From assembly GCA_003222115.1 (NCBI GenBank), contig QHUL01000050.1:17086-81085 (forward strand): a DNA stretch of 64,000 nucleotides, given 5' to 3'. Made by a program: the position numbers and the translations under genes. Of this stretch, positions 1-64,000 are shown piece after piece. Each line of letters opens with the position of its first letter. Position 1 is the stretch's first letter. Below the pieces are notes generated by a model, which was not told where the DNA came from, did not search any database, and saw only the letters and a list, made by a program, of their open reading frames with translations. Source of the stretch: Gemmatimonadota bacterium. GTDB taxonomy: Bacteria; Gemmatimonadota; Gemmatimonadetes; Gemmatimonadales; GWC2-71-9.

Positions 1-2
1 GG

Positions 3-1160
3 CGCCCCACGAAGGATTCGGACCAGGACGGGGTGGTCGATTCCGAGGACAAATGCCCCGACACGCCCGTCGGCGCCAAGGTCGACGAACGGGGCTGCCC
101 CATCGACTCCGACAAGGACGGCGTGCCCGACGGCCTCGACAAGTGTCCCGACACGCCGCCCGGCGCGCACGTCGACGCCACCGGCTGCCCGACCGACGCC
201 GACCAGGATGGCGTGCCCGACGGCCTCGATCAGTGCCCCAACACACCCCCCGGGGTGCACGTCGACGCGACCGGGTGTCCCGTCGATTCCGATCACGACG
301 GCGTGCCCGACGGCATCGACCAGTGCCCCGACACCCCGGCCGGCGCCACGGTCGACGCGAAGGGGTGCCCGAGCGACGCGGACAACGACGGCGTGCCCGA
401 CGGCATCGACCGCTGCCCCAACACACCCATCGGCGCCAAGGTGGACTCGAGCGGCTGCCCCATCGACTCGGATCACGACGGTGTGCCCGACGGCATCGAC
501 CAGTGCTCGGACACGCCGGCCGGCAGCGCGGTGGACTCCACGGGCTGCCCGATCGGCAAGGATTCGGACGGCGACGGCGTGCCGGACTCGGTCGACAAGT
601 GTCCCAACACGCCTGCCGGTACCACGGTGGACGCCACCGGGTGCCCGGTGTCGAACGAGGTCGTGCGCGCCCAGCCCGGCGACGAGGACGGCGACGGGGT
701 GCCCGACACCCTGGACAAGTGCCCGCACACGCCAGCTGGCGCCAAGGTGGACGCGCAGGGCTGCATCATCCTGTTCCAGCCGCAGCCCGCCGGGCCACCG
801 CAGCCCGGCGCGCCGGCGCGCCCCACGCTCATCCTGCTAGGCGTGACCTTCGCGACCGCCCAGTCGGCCCTGAAGCCGCAGTCGTACGTCGTGCTCGACC
901 AGGTCGCCGCGTCGCTCGTCGCGAATCCCGAGATCCAGATCGAGATCGCGGGCTACACCGACAACACCGGCTCCCCCACCCTCAACCGGCGCTTGTCGCA
1001 GGCGCGCGCCGATCGCGTGCGGGCGTACCTCGCGAGCAAAGGCGTGAGTCCCTCGCGGATGATCGCGCGGGGCTACGGCCCGGCGAACCCCATTGCGCCG
1101 AACACCACGGCGGCGGGGCGGGCGCAGAACCGGAGAGTGGAGCTGCACAAGCTGCCGTAG
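3..1160 (+). CDS. OmpA-family outer-membrane protein with tandem thrombospondin type-3 (TSP3) Ca-binding repeats; 5' end lies outside the window
   Basis: The frame is open from the window edge (codons from nt 3 read RPTKDSDQDGVVDSEDKCPDTP), so the start at 33 is not the real one. It has eight ~30-aa units of the form DxDxDGVPDxxDxCPxTPxGxxVDxxGCP. These are followed by an OmpA C-terminal signature (IAGYTDNTGSPTLNRRLSQARADRVRAYL...NRRVEL). Confidence 0.9.
   Translation, partial: RPTKDSDQDGVVDSEDKCPDTPVGAKVDERGCPIDSDKDGVPDGLDKCPDTPPGAHVDATGCPTDADQDGVPDGLDQCPNTPPGVHVDATGCPVDSDHDGVPDGIDQCPDTPAGATVDAKGCPSDADNDGVPDGIDRCPNTPIGAKVDSSGCPIDSDHDGVPDGIDQCSDTPAGSAVDSTGCPIGKDSDGDGVPDSVDKCPNTPAGTTVDATGCPVSNEVVRAQPGDEDGDGVPDTLDKCPHTPAGAKVDAQGCIILFQPQPAGPPQPGAPARPTLILLGVTFATAQSALKPQSYVVLDQVAASLVANPEIQIEIAGYTDNTGSPTLNRRLSQARADRVRAYLASKGVSPSRMIARGYGPANPIAPNTTAAGRAQNRRVELHKLP
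15..764 (+). repeat. About 90-bp tandem coding repeat (8 TSP3 units) inside the OmpA-family gene
   Basis: The DNA block gacggcgtgcccgacggc..gac.agtg.cc..acacgcc recurs with ~90-nt periodicity. The protein units are listed under the CDS entry. Confidence 0.8.
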
Positions 1161-1172
1161 TCAGCCGGATGG

Positions 1173-1204
1173 GCGGATAGGCGGATAGCACTCGCTTATC
1201 CGCC
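1173..1204 (+). repeat. Two tandem octamers GCGGATAG plus a short imperfect hairpin, 13 nt after the OmpA-family stop; possible terminator
   Basis: GCGGATAG occurs at 1173-1180 and again at 1181-1188. GGCGGATAGC (1180-1189) pairs with GCTTATCCGCC (1194-1204) with one bulged A and a 4-nt loop. There is no U-tract. Confidence 0.5.
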
Positions 1205-1252
1205 CGTCGCGCCTCGGGGCCGGCTCCAGTATCTTTCGAGCCCCGAAAGAGC

Positions 1253-3358
1253 ATGGAGCTGTCCCCGATGCGTCCGCTCCACCGCGGCGCTGCCACCGCG
1301 GCCGCGCTGCTGCTATCCGCGTATCCGCCTAACCGCCTAACCGCCCAACGGCCCCTCCAGGCGACGGATTATTACAAGCTCGTCGTGGTTGCGAACCCGG
1401 CGCTCTCTCCCGACGGGCGGCGCGTGGCCTTCGCGGTCACGACGGTGGTCGAAGACAAGGACAAGCGGCACAGCGAGATCTGGATGGCGTCCGCGGACGG
1501 CTCGGGGAAGCCGTACCGCTACACCAGCCCTGCGACCGAGGCGTCGAGCCCGCGCTGGTCGCCGGACGGATCGCTGCTCGCGTTCACGAGCAAGCGCGAG
1601 GGCGCGGACGACGACGCGTGGTTCCTCCGCACCGGCGCCCCGGGCGGCGAAGCCTTTCAGATCGCCGGCGTACACGCGCTGCCCGTGTTCTCGCCGGATG
1701 GCCGGCAGCTCTTGTACGAATGGCGCGGCCCCGAGCCGGACAGCCTGAAGCAGCAGCCATGGCGCGAGCGCGTTTCTCCCGCGGCCATCACCCGCGGGCC
1801 CGATCCCAAGCGGTTCGACGGGCGCCTGTACACGTCTCTCCCCGTCGTCGCAGACGAACGGGGTCTCGTCCCCCCTCGGGAGACACGGCGGCCGCGGCAC
1901 CTCTACGTCGCGCCCCTCGATGGCGGCGACCCGGCCCAGCTCACGACTGGTGAGGTGGCTCAGACCGATCCCGCCTGGTCGCCCGACGGCCGGGCGGTCG
2001 TGTTCGTCCAGGACTCGACGGAGACGGTGGAACTGGATGTGCAGCCGCGGCCCCAGCTCTACGTGCTCACCCTCGCCGACCGGAGCGTGCGGCGGCTCGA
2101 GACGGGATACACGGAAAACGCGTCACCGGCATGGTCGCCGGACGGGAAGTGGATCGCGTTCGAGTGCTCGAAGGGCCGGGGGGAAGAGAACGACGTCTGC
2201 GTCATGCCCGCGGGCGGCGGGGCGGTCCGCAACCTGACGGGTTCCTGGGACCTCGACCCGGGCGGGGTGCAGTGGTCGCGCGACTCGAAGACGGTCTACT
2301 GCTTCGCCGAGACGCGGGGAAACCTGCACCTGTTCGCGGCGGCGGCGGGTGGGGGACCCGTGCGCCAGGTCACGACCGGCGAGCGGCAGCTGCGCGGCTT
2401 TTCCTTCAGCGCCGACGGGAAGTGGCTCACCTACACCGCAAGCGACGTCACCCGCCCGACCGAGTTGTACGTGGCGCCGGCTGCCGGGGGACGGGAGCGG
2501 CGCGTCACCTCATTCAACGACGCCTGGCTCGCGCCGCTCGCCATCATCCCGGCCGATACGTTCTGGTTTGCGGGCACGGGCGGCTTGCGGATCGAGGGGT
2601 GGCTGATGAGACCCTCCGGCTACCAGGCGGGCAAGAAGTACCCCCTCGTGCTGTCCATCCACGGGGGGCCGCACTCGAATTACGGGAACGTGTTCTTCCC
2701 CGAGTTCCAAATGCTCGCCGGGCAGGGGTACTGGATGCTGTTCACGAACCCGCGCGGCTCGAGCGGCTACGGCCATGCCTTCACGTTCGCGACACGCGGC
2801 CGCTGGGGGATGGAGGACTACAGGGATCTCATGCAGGCGGTGGACGTCGTGATCGCGCGGGGGGACGTGGATACGACGAAGCTCGCGGTACTGGGAGGCT
2901 CGTATGGCGGTTTCATGACGAACTGGATCGTGGGGCACACCACCCGCTTCGCGGTGGCGGAGACCGATCGCTCGATCTTCAACTGGTACTCCTGGTACGG
3001 CTCTTCCGACGCGCAGGGCCTCACGGACTACGAGTTCTTCGGCGAGCCGTGGCGCAGCGACTCCCTGTATCGGGCGCTGTCGCCCATGACCTACGCGAAA
3101 GCCATGCGCACTCCGATGCTCATCGTGCACAGCGAGGACGACCGGCGCACGCCCATCACCGACGCCGAGCAGTTGTTCGTGCTGCTGCGCCAGCGCGGCG
3201 TGCCGGCGGAGTTCGTGCGTTATCCGCGCTCGTTCCACGGGCTGTCCCGCACCGGGCCGCCCTGGCTCCTGGTGGACCGGTTGGAGCGGATCCGGACTTG
3301 GTTCGCGCACTGGCTGGGCACGGGCGAGACGCCCTCCGCGGCCGGCGCGCTGCACTAA
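1253..3358 (+). CDS. S9-family serine peptidase (prolyl oligopeptidase / acylaminoacyl-peptidase type) with N-terminal beta-propeller; secreted
   Basis: It has WD40/TolB-like SPDG repeats (LSPDGRRVAF, WSPDGSLLAF, WSPDGRAVVF, WSPDGKWIAF). The nucleophile elbow is GGSYGG, followed by HSEDDRRTP and FHGL. The N-terminus is signal-peptide-like. The start could instead be the ATG at 1268. Confidence 0.9.
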   Translation: MELSPMRPLHRGAATAAALLLSAYPPNRLTAQRPLQATDYYKLVVVANPALSPDGRRVAFAVTTVVEDKDKRHSEIWMASADGSGKPYRYTSPATEASSPRWSPDGSLLAFTSKREGADDDAWFLRTGAPGGEAFQIAGVHALPVFSPDGRQLLYEWRGPEPDSLKQQPWRERVSPAAITRGPDPKRFDGRLYTSLPVVADERGLVPPRETRRPRHLYVAPLDGGDPAQLTTGEVAQTDPAWSPDGRAVVFVQDSTETVELDVQPRPQLYVLTLADRSVRRLETGYTENASPAWSPDGKWIAFECSKGRGEENDVCVMPAGGGAVRNLTGSWDLDPGGVQWSRDSKTVYCFAETRGNLHLFAAAAGGGPVRQVTTGERQLRGFSFSADGKWLTYTASDVTRPTELYVAPAAGGRERRVTSFNDAWLAPLAIIPADTFWFAGTGGLRIEGWLMRPSGYQAGKKYPLVLSIHGGPHSNYGNVFFPEFQMLAGQGYWMLFTNPRGSSGYGHAFTFATRGRWGMEDYRDLMQAVDVVIARGDVDTTKLAVLGGSYGGFMTNWIVGHTTRFAVAETDRSIFNWYSWYGSSDAQGLTDYEFFGEPWRSDSLYRALSPMTYAKAMRTPMLIVHSEDDRRTPITDAEQLFVLLRQRGVPAEFVRYPRSFHGLSRTGPPWLLVDRLERIRTWFAHWLGTGETPSAAGALH
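1324..1355 (+). repeat. Four tandem octamers CTAWCCGC (reverse complement of GCGGWTAG) inside the 5' coding region of the S9 peptidase
   Basis: CTATCCGC GTATCCGC CTAACCGC CTAACCGC occupy 1324-1355. They are translated as LSAYPPNRLT in the predicted signal peptide. Confidence 0.8.
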
Positions 3359-3378
3359 GCCTCGTGACGCATCGATCC

Positions 3379-5715
3379 ATGATCGCGCGCGGGCTCGCCG
3401 CCCTCGCCTGCGCGGCGCTGCTCACCGTTCCAGCCGGGGCGCAGCAGCGGAGACGGCCGGCGCAGCGGCCGGCGCCGCGGATCCCCACGCCGAAATCGGT
3501 GCTCGGCTTCGAGCCCGGCGAAGACCGGAAGCTCGCGGAGTGGCCCCTGCTCGTCCGCTACTATCAGGCGCTCGCCAAAGCGAGCGACCGCCTGCAGTAC
3601 CGCGAGCTCGGGAAGACGACGCTCGGCGCCCCGTTCGTGACGCTCGTGATCTCGAGCCCCCAAAACCTGCGGCGGCTCAATCGCCTGCGCGGCCTCAACG
3701 CCAGGCTCGCCGACCCCCGCACGCTGCGCTCGACCCGCGAAACGGAGGAGGCGCTGCGGGACGGCAAGACCGTCGTCCTCATCACGTCCGGCATCCATTC
3801 GAACGAGGTGGGCGGCCACCTCACCCCCGTGGTGCTCGCCCACCGGCTCGCGACGGACACGAGCGCCGCCACGCGAGCCATCCTGGACAACGTGATCCTG
3901 CTCCTCGTTCCGTCGCTCAACCCGGACGGCGTGACGATCGTCACCCGCTGGTACAATCGGACGCTCGGCACGCCCGCCGAGGGCGCCGAGCCGCCGGAGC
4001 TGTACCACCACTACGCGGGGCACGACAACAACCGCGACTGGTACGCCTTCACCCAGGTGGAGACACGCCTGGCCGTGGACTCGCTGTACAACGTGTGGCA
4101 TCCCCAGATCGTGCAGGACATCCACCAGCAGGACTCGGACGGCTCGCGGCTCTTCCTCCCGCCCTACCTGGATCCCGTGGAGCCGAACGTTGATCCGCTG
4201 CTCGTCGACGGGGTGAACGCGCTGGGGACGGCGGTGGCGTGGGCGCTCTCGGACCAGGGGAAGACGGGCATCGCGATCAACGCGATCTACGACGCCTGGA
4301 CTCCGGCCCGGGCTTACCAGCACTACCACGGCGGCGTGCGGATCCTGTCCGAGGTGGCGAGCGCCGACCTCGCCTCGCCGATCGATGTCGGCTTCGACGA
4401 GCTGCAGGCGCGCGCGCGTGGCTACAACCCGCGGGAGCGCTCCTGGAACTTCACCGCGCCCTGGCCGGGCGGCCGCTGGGCCCTGCGGGACATCGTGAGC
4501 TACCAGACAGAGGCGGCGTACGCCCTGCTCCAGAACGCGGCGCGCGACCGCGACCGCTGGCTCGCGACGTTCCTGACGGTCGGCTGGCACGCGGTGCGCG
4601 GCTGGAAGGGCTGGCCGTACGCGTACGTCATCCCCAAGCAGCGGCAGGACAGCGTGGCACTCGCCGCGCTGCTCGGCATCCTGCACCGCGGCCAGGTCGA
4701 GATCCGCACCGCCCAGCTGCCCTTCACGCTCGGCGGGCAGCGGTTTGCCGCCGGCAGCTACGTCGTGGTCCTGCGCCAACCGTACGCGGCATTCGCCAAG
4801 ACGCTGCTCGAGCCGCAGCACTACCCCGACCTGCGGGTCGCCCCGGGCGGCCCGCCGACTCCGCCGTACGACGTCACGGCCCACACCCTGCCGCTCCTCA
4901 TGGGTGTGGCGGCCGTGCCGGCGCCCGACTCACTGCGCCTGCCGCTGTCGGCCCCGGTCGAGCCGCCGGGCGCGACGCCCGGATACCCGGGTTTCGGTGA
5001 GGGCCAGGCGCCACGCATCGGGTTGTACCGCTCGTACGACGCATCGATGGACGAAGGGTGGACGCGCTGGGTGTTCGACACCTGGAAGGTGCCCTACCAG
5101 CCGCTCGTGGACTCCGTGGTCCGCGCTGGCAAGCTGAAGGAGCAGTTCGACGCCATCCTGCTCCCCGACCAGGAGCCGCGGCAGCTGCTCGATGGCTTGC
5201 CGAAGAGCTACCCCGCGCCCTACCCCGGCGGCCTGGGATCGGAAGGCGCGCGCGCCTTGCGCCAGTTCGTCGAGGACGGTGGCACGCTCATCGCACTCAA
5301 CCAGGCCAGCCGCTTCGTCATGGACCAGCTGCTCCTGCCCGTGCGCAACGTGCTCGAGGGCGTGCCCGACGACGATTTCTACGCGCCGGGCTCCATCTTC
5401 CGGCTGGACGTGGACACGGCGCACGCGGTGGCGAAGGGGACGCCCGCCCACAGCATCGCCTGGTTCGAGAACGGCCCAGCGTTCGAGGTCGTGGACTCGA
5501 CGGCTGTGCGCGTGATCGCCCGTTACCCGGCCGACCCCGACAAGGTGCTCGCCTCAGGCTGGGTGTTGCACCCTGAGAGGGTGGCCGGCCGGGCGGCTCT
5601 GCTCGAAGTGCACCTGGGTTCCGGACGGGTCATCCTGTTCGGCTTCCGGCCCCAGTACCGCGGCCAGAGCATCGCGACCTACCCGTTGCTGTTCAACAGC
5701 TTACAGCTTCGGTGA
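3379..5715 (+). CDS. M14-family zinc carboxypeptidase-like protein; secreted
   Basis: This is the C-terminal 778 aa of track ORF 2131..5715. The ATG at 3379 is followed by a signal peptide (MIARGLAALACAALLTVPAGAQ). It carries the HxxE zinc motif GIHSNEVGG and the run LVPSLNPDG...YAGHDNNRDW. The upstream part of the ORF overlaps the S9 gene in another frame and is Arg/Gly-rich junk. Confidence 0.85.
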   Translation: MIARGLAALACAALLTVPAGAQQRRRPAQRPAPRIPTPKSVLGFEPGEDRKLAEWPLLVRYYQALAKASDRLQYRELGKTTLGAPFVTLVISSPQNLRRLNRLRGLNARLADPRTLRSTRETEEALRDGKTVVLITSGIHSNEVGGHLTPVVLAHRLATDTSAATRAILDNVILLLVPSLNPDGVTIVTRWYNRTLGTPAEGAEPPELYHHYAGHDNNRDWYAFTQVETRLAVDSLYNVWHPQIVQDIHQQDSDGSRLFLPPYLDPVEPNVDPLLVDGVNALGTAVAWALSDQGKTGIAINAIYDAWTPARAYQHYHGGVRILSEVASADLASPIDVGFDELQARARGYNPRERSWNFTAPWPGGRWALRDIVSYQTEAAYALLQNAARDRDRWLATFLTVGWHAVRGWKGWPYAYVIPKQRQDSVALAALLGILHRGQVEIRTAQLPFTLGGQRFAAGSYVVVLRQPYAAFAKTLLEPQHYPDLRVAPGGPPTPPYDVTAHTLPLLMGVAAVPAPDSLRLPLSAPVEPPGATPGYPGFGEGQAPRIGLYRSYDASMDEGWTRWVFDTWKVPYQPLVDSVVRAGKLKEQFDAILLPDQEPRQLLDGLPKSYPAPYPGGLGSEGARALRQFVEDGGTLIALNQASRFVMDQLLLPVRNVLEGVPDDDFYAPGSIFRLDVDTAHAVAKGTPAHSIAWFENGPAFEVVDSTAVRVIARYPADPDKVLASGWVLHPERVAGRAALLEVHLGSGRVILFGFRPQYRGQSIATYPLLFNSLQLR

Positions 5716-6996: not shown

Positions 6997-7704
6997 ATGA
7001 ATCGCCTCTTGCCGCTTTGCGCCGCGGCGCTCGTCGCGTGTTCGTCAGACAGCGTCGCCGTCGACCCCGACGCCATCGACGGTGCAGAGAAGGCTGCCGT
7101 CCAAGCGGCCCTCAACGTCGCGCTCAAGGACGACCCCCTCTATCCCACGCTCGCGTTCCTCGTGTTCCCCTTCATCGATCGGGCTTCGCACGTGAGCACG
7201 GTGAACGGGGAGGCGCGCTTCGTGGGGATAGAGCTCGACATCGATGCGGTGCAGGCCGGCACCCCGGTCGTGGCACAGTTCGCGACGCTGCTCGGGTGGC
7301 GCGGCTACTCGTCCACGACGCAGACGATCGACACCGCCTTCGTCTTGATGGGCGCGGGGATCACCCCGCCGCCGGTCGACGATCAGCTGAGCGATCACTT
7401 CTCCCCCGACGCCCCGGGCACCGGCATCGGTTACGTGGTCCAGCAGAACCCGGACGCGAGCCTGCAGGCGTGGCTCTCGTACACCGGCACGCTGCACGTG
7501 ACGAGCAGTTCCTACGGTACGCCCACCACCACGACCTACGGCACCGGGCTCGTGCTCACGGCGAGCCGCGGCACCCTCAAAGGTGACTTCCAGTTCACGG
7601 GGCATCCCATCCCCGTTCCAGGGCCGCCCGACGTGTCCGCCGCCGCGAGCCTCGCGGGCGGGATCCAGGCGCTCAAGCTCCGGATTACGGGAACGGTGCC
7701 CTAG
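6997..7704 (+). CDS. Hypothetical lipoprotein
   Basis: It has a lipobox-type N-terminus (MNRLLPLCAAALVAC-SSD) and coding-like composition. I recognise no family. Confidence 0.6.
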   Translation: MNRLLPLCAAALVACSSDSVAVDPDAIDGAEKAAVQAALNVALKDDPLYPTLAFLVFPFIDRASHVSTVNGEARFVGIELDIDAVQAGTPVVAQFATLLGWRGYSSTTQTIDTAFVLMGAGITPPPVDDQLSDHFSPDAPGTGIGYVVQQNPDASLQAWLSYTGTLHVTSSSYGTPTTTTYGTGLVLTASRGTLKGDFQFTGHPIPVPGPPDVSAAASLAGGIQALKLRITGTVP

Positions 7705-7714
7705 AACTAACACC

Positions 7715-7795
7715 GTGGGGAGTGGGGAGTGGTACGTGACGGTGCCAAAGCGGATATCCAGTGTGCACCGCATCGAACCACTCCCCGCTCCCCAC
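7715..7795. terminator. Long hairpin with arms made of tandem GGGGAGT heptamers, between convergent genes (probable bidirectional terminator)
   Basis: GTGGGGAGTGGGGAGTGG (7715-7732) pairs with CCACTCCCCGCTCCCCAC (7778-7795). That is 17/18 Watson-Crick pairs plus one G-U, with a 45-nt loop. It lies 10 nt after one stop codon and 5 nt before the other. Confidence 0.6.
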
Positions 7796-7800
7796 GCCTT

Positions 7801-9822
7801 TTAAGTCTCTGCGAGGACCTTCCCCGGCTCCCAGGTGGTGATGTAGCCCGCGATGGCCGACGCCGCGACGGTGTAGGGGTTGGCGAGATACAGCTGCCCC
7901 GGACCTGAGCGCCCGGGGAAGTTGCGATTGATCGCGCTGATCGTCACCTCGTCGCGGGTCTTCGAGACCCCGGGGCCCGCGTTGATGCAGGCGCCGCAGG
8001 AGGGCTCGAGGAACGTGGCGCCCACCTGGCGGAACAGCTCCAGATAGCCGTTCTCCTCGCAGTAGCGCTTCACGTCCTGAGAGCCACACTGGATGTAGAA
8101 CCGCACCCACGACGCGACGCGCTCTCCGCGCTCCGCCGCTTCGCGCAGCACCCGGGCGTACATGTCCATGTCCTCTTTCTTGCCCGCCGTGCAGGAGCCG
8201 GCGTAGGCGATGTCCACGCGGATCCGCTGCTCCGCCTCGTCCACGTCGAGGCCGTTCCCCGGATCGCCGGGCAGAGCCATCATCGGCCGCAGGCTGGCGG
8301 CGTCGATCTCGATCACCTCGCAGTAGCGGGCAGCGGGATCGCTCGCCAACCCCTCACACAGCCGCTCCGCCGCGGCGCGCGTCATCCCGCGGTACTCCAT
8401 CAGGTACTCGACCGTCCGCCCGTCGGGCGCGACGTAGCCCGTGAAGCCGCCCACTTCGGCCGTCATGTTGGTCATCGTGGCCCGCTCGTCCACCGACAGC
8501 GACGCGACAGCATCGCCACAGTATTCCATCAGCTTGCCGATCGCCTTGCCGCTTTTCACGTACGGATGGCGCAGGATCTCGAGCATGAAGTCCTTGGCCG
8601 TCACGTTGTCGGGCTTCTTCCCGCGCACCACGACACGCACCGTTTCGGGCACCGTGATCCGGACGTCTTTCGTGATCCAGGAGTTGAAGATGGCGGTCGT
8701 GCCGACGCCGAACGCGACGCAGCCGACCGCGCCCGCATGCGGCGTGTGTGAGTCACTGCCGATGATCACCATGCCCGGCTCGGCGTACCCCTCCAGGATC
8801 TTGGAGTGGCAGATCGCCTCCGAGCCGTGATGCCCCAGGCGCAGTTCGCCGTACAGCTTGATCCCCTGCTTCTCCGCGAAGTCCCGCTGCTTCTTCTCGA
8901 GCTGCAGCGCGACGTCGAGTAGTCCCTCTTTGATGCGCTCGGGTGTCATCGCCTCAGGGAGGAAGGTCAGGTGGTCGCGGAACATCAGGACGGTGGCGGG
9001 GTCGTGGACCGGTTCATCGCGACCCACCAGCTGCTCGAAGAAAATCGCCGCCATGGGCGTCACGTATTCGTGGCTGAACCGCACGTCCGTGACGACGAAC
9101 CCTTCATCCCCCGGCGCGACCGCCGGGACGCCGATCTTGCCCCGGGCGGGATCCACCACCCAGTGCCGGGCCAGGATTTTCTCCCCCAGGGTCATCGGCC
9201 GGGGCGGCGTGCGAGGCGGCGTGAGCACCACCGCTCCCTGCAGGCGCGCTACGTTGAAGTTGAACAGGCCGCCGTACTCGATGATCCCGCGGGTGATCTC
9301 CCCCTCACCTGCGGTGAAGGCCGCCAGCGGGATCGACTCACCGCGCCGCACCCTGTCGATCACCGAGAAATCGGTCGTCGTGAGGATTCCGAGGTTCTGG
9401 CAGTTCTCGCGGTAGATGCGCTCGATGTTCTCCGCTACGACCAGCTTGATCCCCGCGCACAGCTCGGCGTAGGGAGACTGCTCCCGCGAGGATCCCTTGC
9501 CGCGCCGCTTGCCGCTCACCGAGGCGACGAAGCCCCCCCGCTTCACGGACCCCCGGTCCACGGGGAACTCGTCGCGACACTTGAGGCCCAAGTAGGGAAA
9601 GTCGCCCAACGTTTCGTCGTAGTAGTAGCAGATATAGGCGGGAGTGATTTCGTCGGTCGAGATGTCGTCCCGCAGCTTGATGCCGGGTCGCCACTCCAGG
9701 TCCCGGCCCTCGAGCTGGCTCCGCAACTCGACCGGCCCCTCGGTCAGGAACAGGATCCGCCCCTCGAGCCGTACCGATTGGGGAAGCTTGCGGACGGCGC
9801 GCCGCCGCAGTGCCTCGAGCAT
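7801..9822 (-). CDS. Aconitase/isopropylmalate-isomerase family hydro-lyase with permuted domain order (LeuD-like swivel domain first, LeuC-like catalytic domains after)
   Basis: The N-terminal part carries DDISTDEITPA and GKGSSREQSP (swivel domain). The C-terminal part carries GSDSHTPHAG, AYAGSCTAGK and EPSCGACIN (three Fe-S Cys ligands). I chose the ATG at 9822; the GTG at 9885 is the alternative. Confidence 0.8.
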   Translation of the reverse strand: MLEALRRRAVRKLPQSVRLEGRILFLTEGPVELRSQLEGRDLEWRPGIKLRDDISTDEITPAYICYYYDETLGDFPYLGLKCRDEFPVDRGSVKRGGFVASVSGKRRGKGSSREQSPYAELCAGIKLVVAENIERIYRENCQNLGILTTTDFSVIDRVRRGESIPLAAFTAGEGEITRGIIEYGGLFNFNVARLQGAVVLTPPRTPPRPMTLGEKILARHWVVDPARGKIGVPAVAPGDEGFVVTDVRFSHEYVTPMAAIFFEQLVGRDEPVHDPATVLMFRDHLTFLPEAMTPERIKEGLLDVALQLEKKQRDFAEKQGIKLYGELRLGHHGSEAICHSKILEGYAEPGMVIIGSDSHTPHAGAVGCVAFGVGTTAIFNSWITKDVRITVPETVRVVVRGKKPDNVTAKDFMLEILRHPYVKSGKAIGKLMEYCGDAVASLSVDERATMTNMTAEVGGFTGYVAPDGRTVEYLMEYRGMTRAAAERLCEGLASDPAARYCEVIEIDAASLRPMMALPGDPGNGLDVDEAEQRIRVDIAYAGSCTAGKKEDMDMYARVLREAAERGERVASWVRFYIQCGSQDVKRYCEENGYLELFRQVGATFLEPSCGACINAGPGVSKTRDEVTISAINRNFPGRSGPGQLYLANPYTVAASAIAGYITTWEPGKVLAET

Positions 9823-24952: not shown

Positions 24953-25432
24953 ATGGACGAGGCCGCGAAGAAGACCGTGCTGCGGAGCTTTCCCTACGGC
25001 CTCTACGTCGTCACCGTCGCGCACGGCGGCGAGGAGCACGGCATGACCGCAAACTGGGTGACGCAAGCCTCGTTCGAGCCGCCCATGGTCGTGGTCGCGG
25101 TCGAGAACACCTCGAAGACGATCGACCTGATCCGCGACGCCCACCATTTCGGCGTCAACGTGCTGCACGAGGGCCAGCGCGAACTGGCCGGCAAGCTGGG
25201 GCGCTCGTCCGCCAACACGCCGCAAAAGCTCAAGGGGATCAAGACCAAGCCCGCCCCGGTCTCGGGCGCGCCCATCCTCACCGAAGCGCTCGGCTGGCTC
25301 GAATGTCGCGTGGTCGCCACGATGCCGAGCGGCGACCATACGCTCGTGCTGGGGGAGGTGGTGGAGGCAGGCGTGGAGCGCGAGGGCGCGGCGCTCACGC
25401 TGCAGGCGGCCGGGTTCAAGTACTCGGGGTGA
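24953..25432 (+). CDS. Flavin reductase-like FMN-binding (split-barrel) protein
   Basis: MDEAAKKTVLRSFPYGLYVVTV...GMTANWVTQASFEPPMVVVAV...GDHTLVLGEVV is typical of the flavin reductase domain. The ATG at 24953 is preferred over the track start at 24884. Confidence 0.8.
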   Translation: MDEAAKKTVLRSFPYGLYVVTVAHGGEEHGMTANWVTQASFEPPMVVVAVENTSKTIDLIRDAHHFGVNVLHEGQRELAGKLGRSSANTPQKLKGIKTKPAPVSGAPILTEALGWLECRVVATMPSGDHTLVLGEVVEAGVEREGAALTLQAAGFKYSG

Positions 25433-25439
25433 ATCAAGT

Positions 25440-25533
25440 GCGGAATGTGGAGTGCGGAATGCGGAATGTCTGAGCGAAGTTCGTGCGGCACGACGTTGCA
25501 TTGCAATTCCGCATTCCGAATTCCGCGTTCCGC
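25440..25533. terminator. Long hairpin whose arms are 4 tandem heptamers (GCGGAAT / ATTCCGC), between convergent genes
   Basis: The left arm is GCGGAAT GTGGAGT GCGGAAT GCGGAAT (25440-25467). The right arm is ATTCCGC ATTCCGA ATTCCGC GTTCCGC (25506-25533). About 24/28 positions are complementary, and the loop contains TTGCATTGCAA. The right arm ends 1 nt before the amidohydrolase stop codon. Confidence 0.6.
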
Positions 25534-25534
25534 A

Positions 25535-27190
25535 TTATTTGTGATACACAACCTTCCCGCCCACGATCGTGTAGCTCACCCTCGCCCGGTCGAGCGAGTC
25601 GGGCGGTACGGTGAACAGGTTACGATCGACCACGACCAGGTCGGCGTAATAACCCGGGGCGAGCGTCCCCCATTTCCCCTCGTTGAAGGTCGCGTAGGCG
25701 TTCCCCTCCGTGTAGCCGCGAAGCGCCTCCCCGACCGTGATCTTCTGCTCGGGCACCCAGCCGTTCGGGTGCTTGCCGTCGAGGGTGCGGCGGGTCACCG
25801 CGGCATAGACGCCCAGGATGGGATCGAGCGGCGCGACGGTCCAGTCCGACCCGAAGCCGAGCTTCGCTCCGGTGTCGAGCAGCGTGCGGAACGCGTAGGT
25901 GGTCTTGATGCGGACCGGTCCAATCCGCCCCTCGACCCAGCGGCCGTCGTCGATCGCGTGGTAGGGCTGCATCGACGCAATCACGCCCAGGCGGCCGAAG
26001 CGGGGGATGTCCTGAGGCCGCAGGTGCTGCGCGTGCTCGACCCGGAAGCGCCGGTCGCGCGCCCCGTGGACCCTGGCGACGCTGTCGTAGATGTCGAGGA
26101 TGATGGCGTTCGCGCGGTCGCCGATGGCGTGCACGGTGACCTGCAGCCCCGCCGAGTCGCCGTTGCCGACCCAGCTGCGAAGGTCCGGCTCGGCATGCTG
26201 CATCAGCCCTGCGTAGCCCGCCGAGTCCGCATAGGGCTCGAAGAAATACGCGGTGCGGGAGCCGGCCGAGCCGTCCACGTACCCCTTGAGCCCGCCGATC
26301 TTGACCCAGTCGTCGCCCAGGCCCGAGCGGCGGATCGTGTCGGCGACCGCGCGCCAGTCGGAGAGATCGAGGTACAAGGCCACGCGCAGGGTCATCCGCC
26401 CGGCTTTCTCCAGCCGCCGATAGCTCGCGCGGTCGGCCCAGGATGCGGACACATGGGAGGTCGCGGTCACGCCCAGCGAGGCGGCATAGGCGAGCGCGCG
26501 CGCCAGCGCGGAGTCGCGCTGCTCGGGGCCCGGTTCCGGGACCGCTTTGCCGATCAGGCCCAACGCCTGGTCCTTGAAGATCCCGATCGGCTCGCCGGTC
26601 CGCGGATCACGCAGGATCTCACCACCGAGGGGCGTGGGCGTATCCTTGGTGACGCCGGCCGCCCTAATCGCGGCGCTGTTGGCGAGCGCCTCGTGCCCAT
26701 CGAGCCGGTCCACGAACACGGGATTGTTCGGGGTCACCGAATCGATCCATTCGCGCCGCGGCAGTGGGGCGCCCTTCCAGAGGGTGTGATCCCAGTCGCC
26801 GCCCGTGATCCATTCACCCGGCTTGAGCTTCTGGGCGTATGCCTTGAGCCGCCGGATGAACTCCTGCGGCGTGGCGGCATCGCGCAGGTCAACGGAGGCG
26901 AGCTGGAAGCCGCCGTTGATGAAGTGGGTGTGCCCGTCCGAGAACCCGGGCATGATGAGCCCGCCCCGCGCGGACAGCACCTGCGTCTCCCCGCCCACGT
27001 AGCGGCGCACCGCCGCAGTGTCACCGACCGCCAGGATCCTCCCGCCCCTGACCGCCACGGCGCCGGGCTGCGGTTCGCCGCTGGAGAGGCCGGTCCAGAC
27101 GACGCCGCCCGTGATGACGAGGTCGGCCTTGCGGCCGCAGGCAGCGAGACACATGAGCAACAGCCCCGGCACGGAGAAGCGTCGCGACAT
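25535..27190 (-). CDS. Amidohydrolase-family (Amidohydro_3-type) metal-dependent hydrolase; lipoprotein signal
   Basis: The N-terminus has a lipobox (LLLMCLAAC). Motifs include PGFSDGHTHF and HAIGD, with a C-terminal YTIVGGKVVY. Confidence 0.8.
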   Translation of the reverse strand: MSRRFSVPGLLLMCLAACGRKADLVITGGVVWTGLSSGEPQPGAVAVRGGRILAVGDTAAVRRYVGGETQVLSARGGLIMPGFSDGHTHFINGGFQLASVDLRDAATPQEFIRRLKAYAQKLKPGEWITGGDWDHTLWKGAPLPRREWIDSVTPNNPVFVDRLDGHEALANSAAIRAAGVTKDTPTPLGGEILRDPRTGEPIGIFKDQALGLIGKAVPEPGPEQRDSALARALAYAASLGVTATSHVSASWADRASYRRLEKAGRMTLRVALYLDLSDWRAVADTIRRSGLGDDWVKIGGLKGYVDGSAGSRTAYFFEPYADSAGYAGLMQHAEPDLRSWVGNGDSAGLQVTVHAIGDRANAIILDIYDSVARVHGARDRRFRVEHAQHLRPQDIPRFGRLGVIASMQPYHAIDDGRWVEGRIGPVRIKTTYAFRTLLDTGAKLGFGSDWTVAPLDPILGVYAAVTRRTLDGKHPNGWVPEQKITVGEALRGYTEGNAYATFNEGKWGTLAPGYYADLVVVDRNLFTVPPDSLDRARVSYTIVGGKVVYHK

Positions 27191-29580: not shown

Positions 29581-30493
29581 CCTCGTCGTAGATGTGCCGG
29601 TACGAAACGAGCCGATCGAGGTCGAACGCGCCCCGCTCCGCGGCCGTGCGCACGCCGCAATCCGGCTCGGCCAGATGGCGGCAATTGTCGAAGCGGCACT
29701 GGTCGAGGAAGCGGCGGAACTCGGGAAAACAGGGGGCGAGCAGCTCCGGGTCGACGCCCCAGGCCCCGACCTCCCGCAGGCCCGGCGTGTCCACCACGTA
29801 GGCGCCCCCCCCACCCCCCCCACCCACCCCACCCGCGGCGAGGGGCACGAGCTGCGCCGCCCGCGTCGTGTGCTTCCCCGTCCCCCACTTCTCGTTGATC
29901 TCGCCGATCCGGAGATTCAAGCCCGGCTGTAGCGCGTTCACGAGACTCGACTTCCCCACCCCCGATTCCCCGGTCAGGACGGAGGCACGGCCCCGCAGCA
30001 GGTCGCGCAGCGCGGGGAGACCCTCGGCCGCCTTGACCGACGTCGGGAGCACCTGATAGCCGGCAGGGCCGTAGCGGCGGCGGAACAGCTCGAGCGCTCC
30101 GCGGTCGAGCTCGAGTTTGTTGAGCACCAGCACCGGGGGGATGCGATTCGCCTCGGCGATCACGAGCAAGCGGTCGAGCATGCGGAAATTCGGCTCGGGA
30201 TCCCGTGCCGCCGCTACCACCACTACCTGGTCCACGTTGGCGGCGATCGGCTGCCGCCGGCCGGGCCCGCGCGTGCCGGACGAGCGGCGCGCGAGCAGCG
30301 AGCGGCGCGGGCGCACACCGGTGATGGCGGCCGGGCCGTCGCCGCGAACCTCCAGCTCGACCACATCCCCCGCGACCACGCGGTCATCGTCTTTGCGCTT
30401 GAGCTTCCCGCGCAGCACCGCCGTCATTTCCCCGCGCTCCGCGTGCACGCGATACGTCGAGCCTGTCCGAGCCAGCACCACGCCCGTGGTCAC
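29537..30493 (-). CDS. rsgA: Ribosome small-subunit-dependent GTPase A
   Basis: It has an OB-fold N-terminus, a circularly permuted GTPase (VLNKLEL, GESGVGKSSLVNAL, DTPG) and a Zn-finger tail (CRFDNCRHLAEPDCGV). It also contains an unusual poly-Gly insert. Confidence 0.92.
   Translation of the reverse strand: MTTGVVLARTGSTYRVHAERGEMTAVLRGKLKRKDDDRVVAGDVVELEVRGDGPAAITGVRPRRSLLARRSSGTRGPGRRQPIAANVDQVVVVAAARDPEPNFRMLDRLLVIAEANRIPPVLVLNKLELDRGALELFRRRYGPAGYQVLPTSVKAAEGLPALRDLLRGRASVLTGESGVGKSSLVNALQPGLNLRIGEINEKWGTGKHTTRAAQLVPLAAGGVGGGGGGGAYVVDTPGLREVGAWGVDPELLAPCFPEFRRFLDQCRFDNCRHLAEPDCGVRTAAERGAFDLDRLVSYRHIYDEVSVPSWSSGRRRGR
29805..29834 (-). repeat. C-rich (+) / G-rich (coding strand) low-complexity tract inside rsgA, encoding GGVGGGGGGG
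   Basis: The + strand reads ccccccccaccccccccacccaccccaccc, which includes two C8 homopolymers. Confidence 0.9.
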
Positions 30494-52856: not shown

Positions 52857-52902
52857 GGCGGTAGTTCGGTAGGACTAGACGGATAGACGGCGAGACGGGT
52901 AG
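52857..52902. repeat. Array of about 6 tandem octamers (consensus RCGGNTAG), ~21 nt upstream of the mnmG start
   Basis: The units are GGCGGTAG TTCGGTAG (GACTAG) ACGGATAG ACGGCGAG ACGGGTAG. The array is the inverted partner of 53386-53417. Confidence 0.75.
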
Positions 52903-52915
52903 CGGTGCCCAGGGT

Positions 52916-53293
52916 CTAGTGGCGAGGTTGTCTCAACGCCGCGTCCCCGATCTTCCGCAACAACCCATAAAGCGTCTTACTTGTCTCCGTGGCAAGCGCC
53001 TCCAGCCGACCATATAGAGCTGGCTCGACGTAACCCAGGTCGCGAGCCATCTCAAGCATCGTTTCGACCTCGGCAAGCGACCCGCGCGCGGTGTCCAGGA
53101 ATCGCCGGTACTCACGAGATCCGTTCTTCGCACTACCCTCGGCGATGTTCAGAGGCACGCTGTAGCAAGCACGCCGCATCTGGCTGGCAAGAGCGTCCTG
53201 CTCGTAGTCGGGGAAGCTCCGCGCGGCTTTGACGCACTCGACAGCGAGGCGTTGAGCATGCTGCCAAGCCTTCAGGGTCCGATAAGGGGGCAC
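52916..53293 (-). CDS. Four-helix-bundle protein (TIGR02436 / 23S rRNA intervening-sequence S23p-type family)
   Basis: The sequence runs YRTLKAWQHAQRLAVECVKAARSFPDYEQDALASQMRRACYSVPLNIAEGSAKNGSREYRRFLDTARGSLAEVETMLEMARDLGYV. The NIAEG and GSxxE motifs are present. The start is a GTG, and the segment is visibly more A/T-rich than its flanks. Confidence 0.85.
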   Translation of the reverse strand: MPPYRTLKAWQHAQRLAVECVKAARSFPDYEQDALASQMRRACYSVPLNIAEGSAKNGSREYRRFLDTARGSLAEVETMLEMARDLGYVEPALYGRLEALATETSKTLYGLLRKIGDAALRQPRH

Positions 53294-53385
53294 GAAGCAA
53301 TACTACCGAGAGAGCCGACGCGGTACGGTACCGTTCTGTTGCGATCCGTATCGCACCTATGCATTCAGCTCCGCCCTAGCAACTG

Positions 53386-53417
53386 CTGCCCGTCTACCCG
53401 CCTACCCGTCTACCCTA
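53386..53417. repeat. Array of 4 tandem octamers CTRCCCGY (reverse complement of RCGGGYAG), overlapping the ABC permease stop codon
   Basis: The units are CTGCCCGT CTACCCGC CTACCCGT CTACCCTA. The permease TAG stop is at 53415-53417. Confidence 0.75.
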
Positions 53418-61555: not shown

Positions 61556-61593
61556 CTAAACGAAAGGACCTTGGCGTGAATTCGCAAGTGGCT

Positions 61594-61638
61594 GTCAGCC
61601 ATCAGCTTTCGGCTGACGGCTGACGGCTGACCGCTCAG
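61594..61638. terminator. Hairpin built from GTCAGCC / GGCTGAC heptamers, overlapping the stop codon of the MocA-like gene
   Basis: GTCAGCCATCAGC (61594-61606) pairs with GCTGACGGCTGAC within the array GGCTGAC GGCTGAC GGCTGAC CGCTCAG (61611-61638). The stop TGA is at 61635-61637. Confidence 0.55.

Positions 61639-62932: not shown

Positions 62933-64000
<1,068 letters not shown>

Follow-up and report, generated by a model that had tools for sequence, protein, structure and literature searches.

Two short tandem arrays of octamers on either side of the start of an S9 family peptidase gene in Gemmatimonadota are the arms of a maintained long-range stem of ~21–30 bp, most probably one formed in RNA. 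The arms remain complementary in distant relatives even where the repeat sequence has changed, which argues for a maintained element, probably one that works in RNA. In the window, that is, the whole stretch of 64,000 nt of DNA that was analysed, the left array (A) occupies positions 1165-1188 on the plus strand and consists of CCGGATGG (1165-1172) followed by two copies of GCGGATAG (1173-1180 and 1181-1188). It begins 4 nt past the stop codon (TAG, 1158-1160) of an OmpA-family gene, the 3' part of which, with thrombospondin type 3 repeats, spans positions 1-1160 on the plus strand (Pfam OmpA, 9.3e-22; TSP_3, 2.4e-25). The right array (A'), at 1313-1352 on the plus strand, is built of CTATCCGC (1313-1320), GTATCCGC (1321-1328), two CTAACCGC units (1329-1336 and 1337-1344) and a degenerate CCAACGGC (1345-1352). 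Both arrays were detected by TRF, with 2.9 copies at 1166-1188 and 5.1 copies at 1313-1353. The inverted-repeat arms returned by a repeat search (1160-1190 and 1311-1341; 31 nt, 84% complementary) rank second-best within a 600 nt span in the whole 64-kb window, whose three best inverted repeats are all made of tandem 7-8-mers; at the locus itself, the repeat search gave no direct repeats flanking the arms. A single inverted copy, a' (1192-1208, plus strand; core CTTATCCGCCC at 1195-1205), had been overlooked in a preliminary description of this DNA. That description placed the left array correctly at 1173-1188, whereas its position for the right array, 1324-1355, is ~11 nt too high, and the interval between the arms, given as 135 nt, measures 124 nt (1189-1312). 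It was right that the inverted repeat encloses the peptidase start, since both candidates, ATG 1253 and ATG 1268, fall in this interval, and the ORF translations agree with its reading of the arrays as LSAYPPNRLTAQ (right array, sense strand) and LSAYPPIRLT (left array, antisense ORF).

The predicted RNA fold of positions 1155-1365 had a minimum free energy (MFE) of −114.6 kcal/mol, compared with −84.7±4.4 kcal/mol for shuffled sequences (z = −6.8; 0 of 200 shuffles were as good). The long-range A:A' stem is present in the MFE structure, the pair probabilities for 1166-1190 with 1311-1335 were ~1.0, and holding A' unpaired resulted in a loss of 16 kcal/mol. The stem is composed of 10 + 10 bp with one G/G mismatch, plus flanking pairs, which makes it at least ~20 bp long, and the energy of the A × A' duplex was −45.7 kcal/mol. 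Array A can also form a local hairpin with a' (1168-1184 with 1192-1208, plus strand; 17 bp, −33.9 kcal/mol), which has no U-tract after it. An inner hairpin at 1209-1273 (plus strand; −43.7 kcal/mol), also missing from the preliminary description, pairs GGAG at 1255-1258 with CUCC at 1224-1227 and covers both ATGs; it is lineage-specific and is not kept in other lineages. The pairing anticipated earlier is therefore borne out, with a free energy well below that of shuffled sequences. The further suggestion that pairing sequesters the peptidase start or creates a processing site stands only in part: the start region is enclosed by the stem, but the start is not itself paired within it, because the GGAG and the ATGs are paired by the separate, non-conserved inner hairpin. 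A scan of 1050-1450 showed no terminator-like site, the A:a' hairpin being followed by GUCGCGCC, and the Rfam 15 covariance models gave nothing meaningful at 1100-1420, even at E ≤ 10; across the window, the only gathering-level match was to the TPP riboswitch. A chance origin of the A/A' inverted repeat was rejected from the comparison of the fold with shuffles and from the window-wide ranking of inverted repeats.

The orthologous loci, from Gemmatimonadales metagenomes, carry an array at both positions in 17–21 of 66 non-redundant cases. Both arrays were present in 17 loci, neither in 43, only the right one, in decayed form, in 5 and only the left one in 1 (Fisher p = 2e-10, ignoring phylogeny). 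Loss of the left array thus goes with loss or decay of the right one, and approximately two thirds of the orthologous loci have no arrays. Array-bearing loci are spread throughout the S9 tree, including both of its deepest clades. The long-range stem appeared in the MFE structure of all 17 non-redundant array-bearing loci, with 14–31 pairs, and forbidding it cost 25–43 kcal/mol. The units that form these stems differ between lineages. The window has the pair GCGGATAG/CTATCCGC; complementary arms are made of GCGGGTAG and GCGGTTAG on the left with CTACCCGC and CTAACCGC on the right in L006, of GGGCGGTC/CCGACCGC in L007 and L034, of CGGACGGG/CCGTCCGC in L025, of TCGGACGG/CCGTCCGA in L029 and of GTTGGACC/CGGTCCAA in L039. 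In the L007/L034 lineage, the single inverted copy a' co-varies with the unit as well. Arms were more complementary to their own partner than to arms of other loci in all 5000 permutations, and the values formed blocks by unit type. A consensus fold by RNAalifold from a plain MAFFT alignment of 18 loci contained almost no stem (−3.7 kcal/mol), as the arrays of different loci pair in different registers; the case for covariation consequently rests on the per-locus folds and on the comparison of own-locus with cross-locus complementarity.

The right arm is also translated, and the peptide it encodes varies across orthologues (LSAYPPNRLTAQ, LTARPPDRLSAQ, LSVSPTVRLSAQ and FIGPTVQRSAAQ) while the 8-nt period and the complementarity are kept. 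The peptide follows the change of unit, which indicates a constraint on nucleotides and not on protein. This is in agreement with the earlier claim of a DNA-level repeat, and the comparison of orthologous N-termini, proposed at that time, showed no conservation of the amino acids independently of the repeat. Protein-level conservation was rejected as an explanation, since the orthologue peptides change while nucleotide pairing persists. Lineages without arrays have a long, purely intergenic hairpin at the equivalent site past the OmpA stop, suggesting that strong structure after this stop is a constant feature. In lineages without arrays, a possible pairing between 9-mer arrays (AGACGCAGC) and the start region ATGCGTCTGC was non-significant relative to shuffles (z of ~ −2 to +1.5) and was therefore discarded, and the 3-kb flanks of 80 orthologous loci, which are almost all coding, contained no further array hairpins.

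A and A' are members of a repeat family, defined here, that is enriched in Gemmatimonadota and located at gene boundaries. Membership required a tandem array in which a GCGGNTAG-related 8-mer is repeated at least 2.5 times, a definition that includes both A and A'. GTDB genomes contain at least 119 stretches with arrays of the GCGGNTAG type, and with GCGGNTAGGCGGNTAGGCGG as a query ~49 of 80 among the matches listed were from Gemmatimonadota, with several loci per genome. In 37 of 119 family loci, a gene on the same strand as the G-rich array ends no more than 60 nt from where the array starts, in most cases at −24 to +7 nt, and the window locus shares this placement. Elsewhere, most GCGGNTAG arrays are solo, with a partner in 28 of 126; partners were downstream in 28 cases and upstream in 2, and the reversed-sequence control gave 4. 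The window pair has the family polarity, with A upstream and A' downstream. Five array hairpins are found in the window, each with its own unit (GCGGATAG, ACGGATAG, TGCGGAA, CGGCTGA and GTGGGGA). The GTGGGGA-heptamer hairpin at 7714-7796, the strongest inverted repeat of the window, lies between convergent genes; (TGCGGAA)x4 and (ATTCCGC)x4, 38 nt apart at 25437-25536, fill another gap between convergent genes and abut both stops; and a short-loop hairpin of (CGGCTGA)x3.7 with an adjacent inverted copy (61591-61635) is located just downstream of a minus-strand gene. The remaining one consists of inverted ACGGATAG-type arrays (52876-52902 and 53386-53415) around a PF05635 gene at 52920-53290 on the minus strand. 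Here ACGGATAG and ACGGGTAG with their complements flank 52876-53415, so the preliminary description was justified in assigning the unit that brackets this four-helix-bundle cassette and the unit of A/A' to one family. We found no description of the octamer-array element or of its Gemmatimonadota family in the literature.

Gene conversion or slippage can also make inverted DNA repeats covary, with no selection acting on RNA. Slippage would then cause turnover at gene boundaries, gene conversion or template switching at hairpins during replication would keep the inverted copies alike, complementarity and joint decay would be by-products, and the right arm would persist only because the c-region of the signal peptide is tolerant. 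Such concerted evolution of a DNA-level repeat family, with no locus-specific function, is the chief competitor of the RNA stem and is in our judgment unlikely, with a chance that is nevertheless appreciable. It agrees with the abundance of the family, its enrichment in the phylum, its several loci per genome and its mostly solo arrays. Relatives differ in unit number and in unit variants, roughly two thirds of the orthologous loci seem to manage without arrays, and right-only arrays decay, as expected after the loss of a conversion partner. However, the arms in the window are non-mirror copies, since nothing on the left is the exact complement of the two CTAACCGC units on the right, and in L006 the unit variants follow one another in a different order in each arm; this argues against recent conversion of whole arrays. 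In addition, arms of 24–40 bp placed 120 nt apart are near or below the usual minimum length for homologous recombination. The strict polarity of partners and the repeated occurrence of an array exactly at a stop codon suggest selection on position. On the plus (sense) strand, mismatches in a Watson-Crick-only alignment of the arms were of the G.U type in 16 cases and of the A.C type in 5 (binomial p = 0.013, for events that are non-independent), an excess that counts against this reading. The excess is small, however, comes from related loci and could be confounded by base composition. Where the arms of the window differ from those of L001, among its closest relatives (99% protein identity), the changes are non-compensatory and leave one extra mismatch in the window stem.

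All six PF05635 (23S rRNA-intervening-sequence protein, four-helix bundle; S23p) genes seen lie inside such array brackets, and in L087 two arrays separated by 158 nt enclose what remains of a truncated gene. Both observations are in line with the idea, raised in the preliminary description, that A and A' are what is left of an excised or degraded cassette, namely a deleted S23p cassette once located between them. Nevertheless, a PF05635 gene is found between arrays in only ~3 of 119 array loci, and a tblastn search with two S23p proteins detected no similarity at 1189-1312. Furthermore, orthologous loci without arrays have an intergenic and 5' region to which the enclosed segment can be aligned, including a TAnnTTT box at fixed spacing from the ATG. 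Given a segment orthologous to array-less loci, with no four-helix-bundle similarity and in an old and maintained arrangement, we abandoned this idea as highly improbable. In the 23S rRNA intervening sequence (IVS) of Coxiella, a 28-bp terminal inverted-repeat stem has an S23p ORF inside and is cut within the stem by RNase III, and tandem heptamers are also found inside (PMC4990558). The similarities to the IVS of Coxiella burnetii and Leptospira (PMC4990558) are a ~28 bp inverted-repeat stem around a few hundred nt and, in Gemmatimonadota, the bracketing of every PF05635 gene seen by octamer arrays. In contrast to the IVS, the A/A' element lies between protein-coding genes in a window that contains no rRNA, and not in helix 25 or 45; its segment holds the putative promoter box and the peptidase 5' end and no S23p ORF, which is present at 52876-53415; and its arms are tandem 8-mers with lineage-specific units, one of them translated.

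The peptidase gene (1268-3358, plus strand) likely starts at ATG 1268 (GGAG 9 nt upstream, MRPLHRG...), with ATG 1253 as the alternative, and the upstream OmpA-family gene (ending ...RVELHKLP*) is common to 78 of 81 loci, that is, 80 related loci and the window. Inside the enclosed segment, TATCTTTC at 1230-1237 (plus strand) is a TAnnTTTn box and a putative −10/−7 promoter element of the peptidase gene. Of 68 non-redundant loci, 57 have a TAnnTTT box 24–31 nt before the ATG, with two outliers at 40 and 44 nt; the background expectation is 0.004 per 70 nt. This conserved motif is probably the peptidase promoter. If so, the peptidase's own mRNA would not contain the left arm, and any effect in cis would be limited to read-through transcripts.

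Inverted repeats of 24–31 bp around a short segment with a putative promoter and a start codon are also what would be expected if the arrays were recombination sites, where a flip of the 124-bp segment would detach the promoter box, the ribosome-binding site and the start codon from the peptidase. Gemmatimonadota are in the FCB group, in which invertons are common, and in L176 the four-helix-bundle gene does not have the same orientation with respect to its flanking arrays as in the window. We consider inversion very unlikely at this locus. The segment has the same orientation in the window and in all 80 related loci, with the ATG in frame (the exception is L036, with a 46-nt deletion); assemblies represent the majority orientation, so that rare flipping is possible. 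The ORFs at 1-5715 encode the OmpA-family protein, the S9 peptidase and a large ORF with M14-like sequence (the Pfam check covered OmpA and the S9 peptidase), and no recombinase gene adjoins. Unit sequences also differ among loci of one genome, which means that a single site-specific recombinase could not serve all of them. The A/A' element thus resembles the invertons of Bacteroidota in having short inverted repeats around a promoter-containing segment and differs from them in the missing adjacent recombinase, in the lack of an inverted allele among 81 loci and in units that are not shared within a genome.

We favor, tentatively and at a little under an even chance, an explanation in which the RNA stem acts on read-through transcripts, clamps the peptidase start region and offers a substrate of the RNase III type, thereby insulating the peptidase. 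On read-through from the OmpA-family gene into the peptidase, A in the 3' UTR would pair with A' in the peptidase codons, and closure of A:A' would clamp a segment of ~120 nt with the promoter box, the ribosome-binding site, the start codon and the first half of the signal peptide. In the lineage of the window, the inner hairpin would additionally pair the GGAG and both AUGs within the clamp. The local A:a' hairpin would form first during transcription and compete with the more stable A:A' pairing. A duplex of this length may serve as an RNase III-type substrate, a proposal based on the similar stems that bracket S23p genes in this phylum and on the cutting of inverted-repeat stems in 23S rRNA intervening sequences. 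Read-through RNA would then give no translation of the peptidase and would probably be cut, while RNA from the internal TAnnTTT promoter, which would not carry arm A, would be translated. In this way the element would act as an insulator between the peptidase and a strongly expressed gene upstream of it. Against this explanation, several lineages have a GC hairpin and a T-run between A and the TAnnTTT box that resemble an intrinsic terminator and would reduce read-through. Sites for RNase III in the phage T7 early region, the rpsO-pnp leader and lambda sib retroregulation separate or down-regulate adjacent genes. There, as proposed for A/A', a long duplex in polycistronic or read-through RNA uncouples neighbours; unlike A/A', those stems are unique sequences with short loops outside coding regions.

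The layout of the L029/L032/L076 group, in which the array is followed by a 12-13-bp GC hairpin and then by GGUAGUUUUCU, also fits a different reading, in which pairing occurs in trans. The OmpA mRNA would end at a hairpin after A (A:a' here, the GC hairpin and U-run elsewhere), A would be a single-stranded seed as in 3'-UTR sRNAs, and this tail or a fragment of it would pair with A' of a separate peptidase mRNA, leading to cleavage or to a block of early elongation, with peptidase levels inverse to OmpA mRNA. The conserved box suggests an independent peptidase transcript carrying A' only, A' is mostly unpaired or weakly paired in the fold of such a putative transcript, and the A × A' duplex has the energy of −45.7 kcal/mol given above. 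Nonetheless, the seed in the window is buried within the A:a' hairpin, which is without a U-tract in a region where the scan gave no terminator-like site, and the target, at peptidase codons 16-26 counted from ATG 1268, is beyond the region where pairing usually blocks initiation. To our knowledge, nothing is known of sRNA chaperones or 3'-UTR sRNAs in Gemmatimonadota, which we also counted against this mechanism. Pairing in trans therefore appears improbable.

REP/BIME elements of Enterobacteria and Pseudomonas are imperfect palindromes present in many copies at the borders of genes, frequently in 3' UTRs or between convergent genes, and their proposed role is that of RNA stem-loops by which the upstream mRNA is stabilised or terminated. 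Liang, Rudd and Deutscher reportedly found in 2015 that ribosomes in the course of termination are affected by REPs lying no more than ~15 nt from the stop codon. The arrays are likewise gene-boundary palindromes, and stop-proximal REPs parallel the arrays that abut or supply a stop codon. REPs, however, have ~35 nt of conserved sequence per species and are non-tandem, whereas the array units vary by locus and lineage, the loop can exceed 100 nt and one arm lies in a coding region. The STRR heptamers of heterocystous cyanobacteria, a few fixed heptamers whose function is still unclear, are similar in being 7-8 nt tandem repeats scattered in the intergenic DNA of one phylum; we know of no description of them as co-varying inverted pairs abutting stop codons or as translated signal-peptide segments. 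A MITE differs from A/A' in that the interior of A/A' is locus-specific and orthologous to array-less loci, and no flanking direct repeat was seen.

More speculatively, and with a rather low probability, the family as a whole may be an undescribed and actively renewed "array clamp" system of Gemmatimonadota and some other soil phyla. Tandem units would be installed at stop codons, possibly by the process that moves S23p IVS-like cassettes; with an inverted partner they would form RNase III-type stems of locus-specific sequence that partition transcripts at gene boundaries, and the arms would evolve in concert and be taken repeatedly into signal-peptide coding. If the A/A' stem works in RNA, a phylum-enriched family at exact stop codons and start regions would bear on the definition of gene boundaries, on transcript processing and on annotation in Gemmatimonadota, which are abundant in soil but have hardly been studied by molecular genetics. 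The enigmatic S23p/four-helix-bundle genes, so far discussed mainly as passengers of rRNA IVSs, would be tied to a broader class of inserts that are bracketed by stems and lie in mRNA regions, and this link would make their function open to testing. Such arrays are the source of spurious ORFs, wrong starts and odd "LSAYPPNRLTAQ" peptides in databases.

If the stem at the peptidase locus works in RNA, it would be a clear natural case of one nucleotide stretch under two constraints, in which the structural constraint visibly drove the peptide sequence across lineages. Translation of the right array gives LSAYPPNRLTAQR, which makes up the end of the h-region together with the c-region of the peptidase signal peptide, and the array would have a dual role as a structural arm and as the translated end of the signal peptide, a tolerant segment. 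On the array-clamp reading, arms taken into coding sequence would make up the c-region in the window locus, L110 and L195 and both the n- and c-regions in L180. The idea of an open reading orientation was found to be true only in part, since several unit cycles contain stops: the CTATCCGC and CTACCCGC cycles are stop-free in reading, and those of CTAACCGC, CTGACCGC and CTAGCCGC have one stop per 8 codons, which real arrays avoid via unit variants. For example, GCC-TAA is now GCC-CAA, encoding Ala-Gln at the cleavage site.

In the window (G+C content 69.7%), which derives from a Gemmatimonadales genome, a plus-strand gene of the OmpA family that encodes thrombospondin type 3 repeats, assigned by ORF and Pfam, ends with a TAG at 1158-1160. 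A 90/180-nt tandem periodicity at 54-555 (5.6 copies) was rejected as a non-coding repeat; it reflects the repeated codons of this protein's thrombospondin type 3 modules. Four nucleotides past the stop begins a left array of octamers on the same strand, CCGGATGG GCGGATAG GCGGATAG (1165-1188). The plus-strand ORF that follows encodes an S9 peptidase whose top matches are Gemmatimonadales proteins. Of its candidate starts, ATG 1268 is more likely on sequence grounds than ATG 1253, which opens the ORF: it has GGAG 9 nt upstream, its peptide would begin MRPLHRG and its spacing is that of the orthologues. The right array, CTATCCGC GTATCCGC CTAACCGC CTAACCGC CCAACGGC, lies on the plus strand within the signal-peptide codons of the peptidase, at 1313-1344 or, with its degenerate last unit, 1313-1352. 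The preliminary description had misplaced this array at 1324-1355 and separated the arms by 135 nt, whereas the actual gap is 124 nt; its remaining points hold, including the readings LSAYPPNRLT and LSAYPPIRLT in the translated ORFs. The inverted-repeat arms, 1160-1190 and 1311-1341, are 31 nt long and 84% complementary, and they rank second among inverted repeats no more than 600 nt apart in the whole window. The three best such repeats are each built from tandem 7-8-mers.

The predicted RNA fold of 1155-1365 has an energy of -114.6 kcal/mol, against -84.7 ± 4.4 kcal/mol for shuffles (z = -6.8), so that the proposed pairing exceeds what shuffled sequence gives. The minimum free energy (MFE) structure includes the long-range stem between the two arrays, with a pair probability of ~1 for 1166-1190 with 1311-1335. 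The duplex is predicted at -45.7 kcal/mol, and forcing the right array to be unpaired costs 16 kcal/mol in the predicted fold. Two further hairpins had been overlooked. The first is a local 17-bp hairpin (predicted -33.9 kcal/mol) between the left array and a lone inverted copy at 1195-1205, which would be the first to form during transcription and would compete with the long-range duplex. No U-tract follows it, and a scan found no terminator-like site. The second is nested at 1209-1273 (predicted -43.7 kcal/mol); in it GGAG 1255-1258 is paired with CUCC 1224-1227, and both ATGs fall within the hairpin.

Metagenome contigs scanned with the peptidase yielded 80 orthologous loci with 71-99% protein identity. 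With the window counted, the same OmpA-family gene lies upstream of the peptidase in 78 of 81 loci, and three of the 81 begin too near the peptidase gene for the upstream gene to be judged. Many orthologues have a signal-peptide segment of 8-residue periodicity at the same place, written in other letters (LSAYPPNRLTAQ, LTARPPDRLSAQ, LSVSPTVRLSAQ, LTAGPPVCLSAQ). Its DNA consists of octamer arrays terminating at GCC-CAA/CAG, and every orthologue with such an array has a second one immediately past the OmpA stop. The arms are complementary within each locus while the unit varies by lineage, as in the pairs GCGGATAG/CTATCCGC, GGGCGGTC/CCGACCGC, CGGACGGG/CCGTCCGC, TCGGACGG/CCGTCCGA, GTCGGACTG/CAGTCCGA and GTTGGACC/CGGTCCAA, and in the set GCGGGTAG and GCGGTTAG / CTACCCGC and CTAACCGC. 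Complementarity to the locus's own arm exceeded cross-locus complementarity in 5000/5000 permutations, with blocks by unit type, and the long-range stem was present in the MFE structure of all 17 folded non-redundant array loci (14-31 pairs, with a predicted 25-43 kcal/mol at stake). A chance origin of the paired arrays is excluded.

Because the encoded peptide changes with the unit, the constraint, as read from these sequences, is at the nucleotide level; protein-level conservation is excluded, and the same amino acids kept without the nucleotide repeat, which the preliminary description had named as the contrary case, were not what we found. The in-frame stops expected from a pure unit cycle are avoided through unit variants, for example GCC-CAA in place of GCC-TAA (Ala-Gln at the cleavage site), so that the array really is translated. 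Among 66 non-redundant loci, 21 have both arrays when the periodicity score is required to be ≥10. With the requirement raised to ≥11, 17 have both, 43 neither, five the right only (visibly decayed) and one the left only. A neighbour-joining tree of the peptidase places array-bearing loci in each of its two deepest clades, interleaved with array-less ones, which suggests that the arrays are an old state lost repeatedly, although they may instead have been gained repeatedly. That the arms belong to an inverton is very improbable, since none of the 81 loci showed the inverted allele and no recombinase lies next to the element. One orthologous locus (L036, ~2383-2481) lacks 46 nt that L034 has between the start codon of the peptidase and the right array, so that its ATG is no longer in frame; this may be either a natural null allele or an artefact of assembly.

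The best-conserved non-coding element of the locus is a TAnnTTTn box, TATCTTTC at 1230-1237 (+), conserved among the non-redundant loci. In 57 of 68 the box precedes the ATG by 24-31 nt (40 and 44 nt in two outliers), against a background rate of 0.004 per 70 nt; 10 of the 11 other loci have GTATTTTC where it would stand. The box resembles the -7 promoter motif of Bacteroidota, TAnnTTTG, and is a putative peptidase promoter. If so, the peptidase's own mRNA would have the right arm only, and the cis stem would therefore be confined to read-through RNA. Our preferred reading, held tentatively at a little under an even chance, is that on read-through transcripts the array in the OmpA 3' UTR pairs with that in the signal-peptide codons; the stem would clamp the peptidase start region and serve as an RNase III-type substrate, and the peptidase would be made only from RNA begun at the internal promoter. 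The OmpA 3'-UTR tail could instead pair in trans with the peptidase mRNA, which we consider quite improbable.

In one group of orthologues (L029/L032/L076) the left array is followed by a 12-13-bp GC hairpin and GGUAGUUUUCU, which together look like a terminator. Array-less lineages have a long, wholly intergenic hairpin directly past the OmpA stop, and thus what stays constant across lineages is strong structure at this position. Tandem 9-mers AGACGCAGC occur in the first 40 nt past the stop in array-less L042, L053, L057, L062 and their relatives; these are no more complementary to the peptidase start region ATGCGTCTGC than shuffles are.

Four further hairpins in the window have arms of tandem 7-8-mers. 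The one at 7714-7796, which an inverted-repeat search ranks strongest in the window, has GTGGGGA heptamers in 32-nt arms (84% complementary, 19-nt loop) and abuts both stops of two convergent genes, one ending near 7704 (+) and the other near 7801 (-). At 25437-25536, (TGCGGAA)x4.3 and (ATTCCGC)x4.4 form 29-nt arms that likewise abut both stops of convergent genes, filling the gap from the TGA at 25430-25432 (plus-strand gene) to the TAA at 25537-25539 (minus-strand gene). The others lie at 61591-61635, downstream of a minus-strand gene, and at 52876-53415, where inverted arrays bracket a minus-strand PF05635 gene. A search of 185,579 species genomes for GCGGNTAGGCGGNTAGGCGG matched at least 119 stretches. 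Among the matches listed, Gemmatimonadota account for ~49 of 80, often with several loci per genome. Of the 119 loci matched, 37 have a gene on the same strand whose stop is no more than 60 nt from where the array starts. The stop-to-array distance in these 37 is mostly -24 to +7 nt in steps of 8, which shows that in many cases a TAG of the array itself serves as the stop. Also among the matches listed, 28 of 126 arrays have a complementary array downstream and two upstream (reversed-sequence control, 4); paired arrays lie mostly between convergent genes, with loops of 11 to 500 nt, mostly <160.

Arrays of opposite orientation are located in the 5' UTRs of unrelated genes or in the c-regions of their signal peptides (L110, L180, L195). 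In L180 (~7878-7983, minus strand of the locus as stored), both hairpin arms lie within a Tat-like signal peptide, MKPVRRLDGWAVRRTLTRRGFLAAGLGLLTACPPNRLTAQ; the G-rich arm encodes the basic n-region and the C-rich arm the c-region, and the unit's would-be in-frame TAG is changed to TGG. Outside Gemmatimonadota, long arrays of the GCGGNTAG type, a number of them paired with an inverted array, were also seen in L081 (Chloroflexi MAG), L083 and L137 (Lewinella), L088 and L142 (Thermomicrobiales), L098 (a betaproteobacterium), and L112 and L144 (Vicinamibacterales). The loop of L081 holds a second hairpin made of CACGGAAG units.

All six genes seen for PF05635 (S23p, the four-helix-bundle protein of 23S rRNA intervening sequences) sit inside inverted GCGGNTAG-type array brackets (the window, L176, a remnant in L087, L143, L191 and L192). 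Those of L143, L191 and L192, flanked by convergent genes, seem to represent a single orthologous site. Relative to its arrays, the gene is oriented differently in the window (minus strand) and in L176 (786-1347, plus strand). Such a gene lies between arrays in only ~3 of the 119 array loci matched. An S23p ORF within a terminal inverted-repeat stem is also the layout of the 23S rRNA intervening sequence (IVS); that of Coxiella has a 28-bp stem cleaved by RNase III (PMC4990558). The preliminary description had offered a degraded cassette as an alternative, and a degraded S23p cassette at the OmpA-S9 locus seems most improbable of all, as the segment between the arms is orthologous to that of array-less loci and shows no similarity to S23p.

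DNA-level concerted evolution without local function is unlikely, yet a serious possibility. The case for RNA rather than DNA is thin: it consists of the mismatch bias in the sense-strand arms (16 of G.U type versus five of A.C type, p = 0.013, for observations that are not independent), the family's polarity and its position at stop codons, and the likeness to IVS stems.

RNase III stems, like repetitive palindromes that mark gene boundaries, are already known; for these octamer arrays, neither the literature nor Rfam yielded a description. What looks new is the tandem-octamer build with a unit that drifts while the arms keep complementarity, the placement exactly at stop codons, the use of one arm as translated signal-peptide codons, and the tie to S23p genes outside rRNA. 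Elsewhere in the window, a TPP riboswitch (RF00059; 62933-63029 (+), 70.3 bits, E = 8.5e-12) lies upstream of an ORF starting near 62999, and a C-rich tract of ~30 nt, CCCCCCCCA x3.3, occupies 29805-29834.
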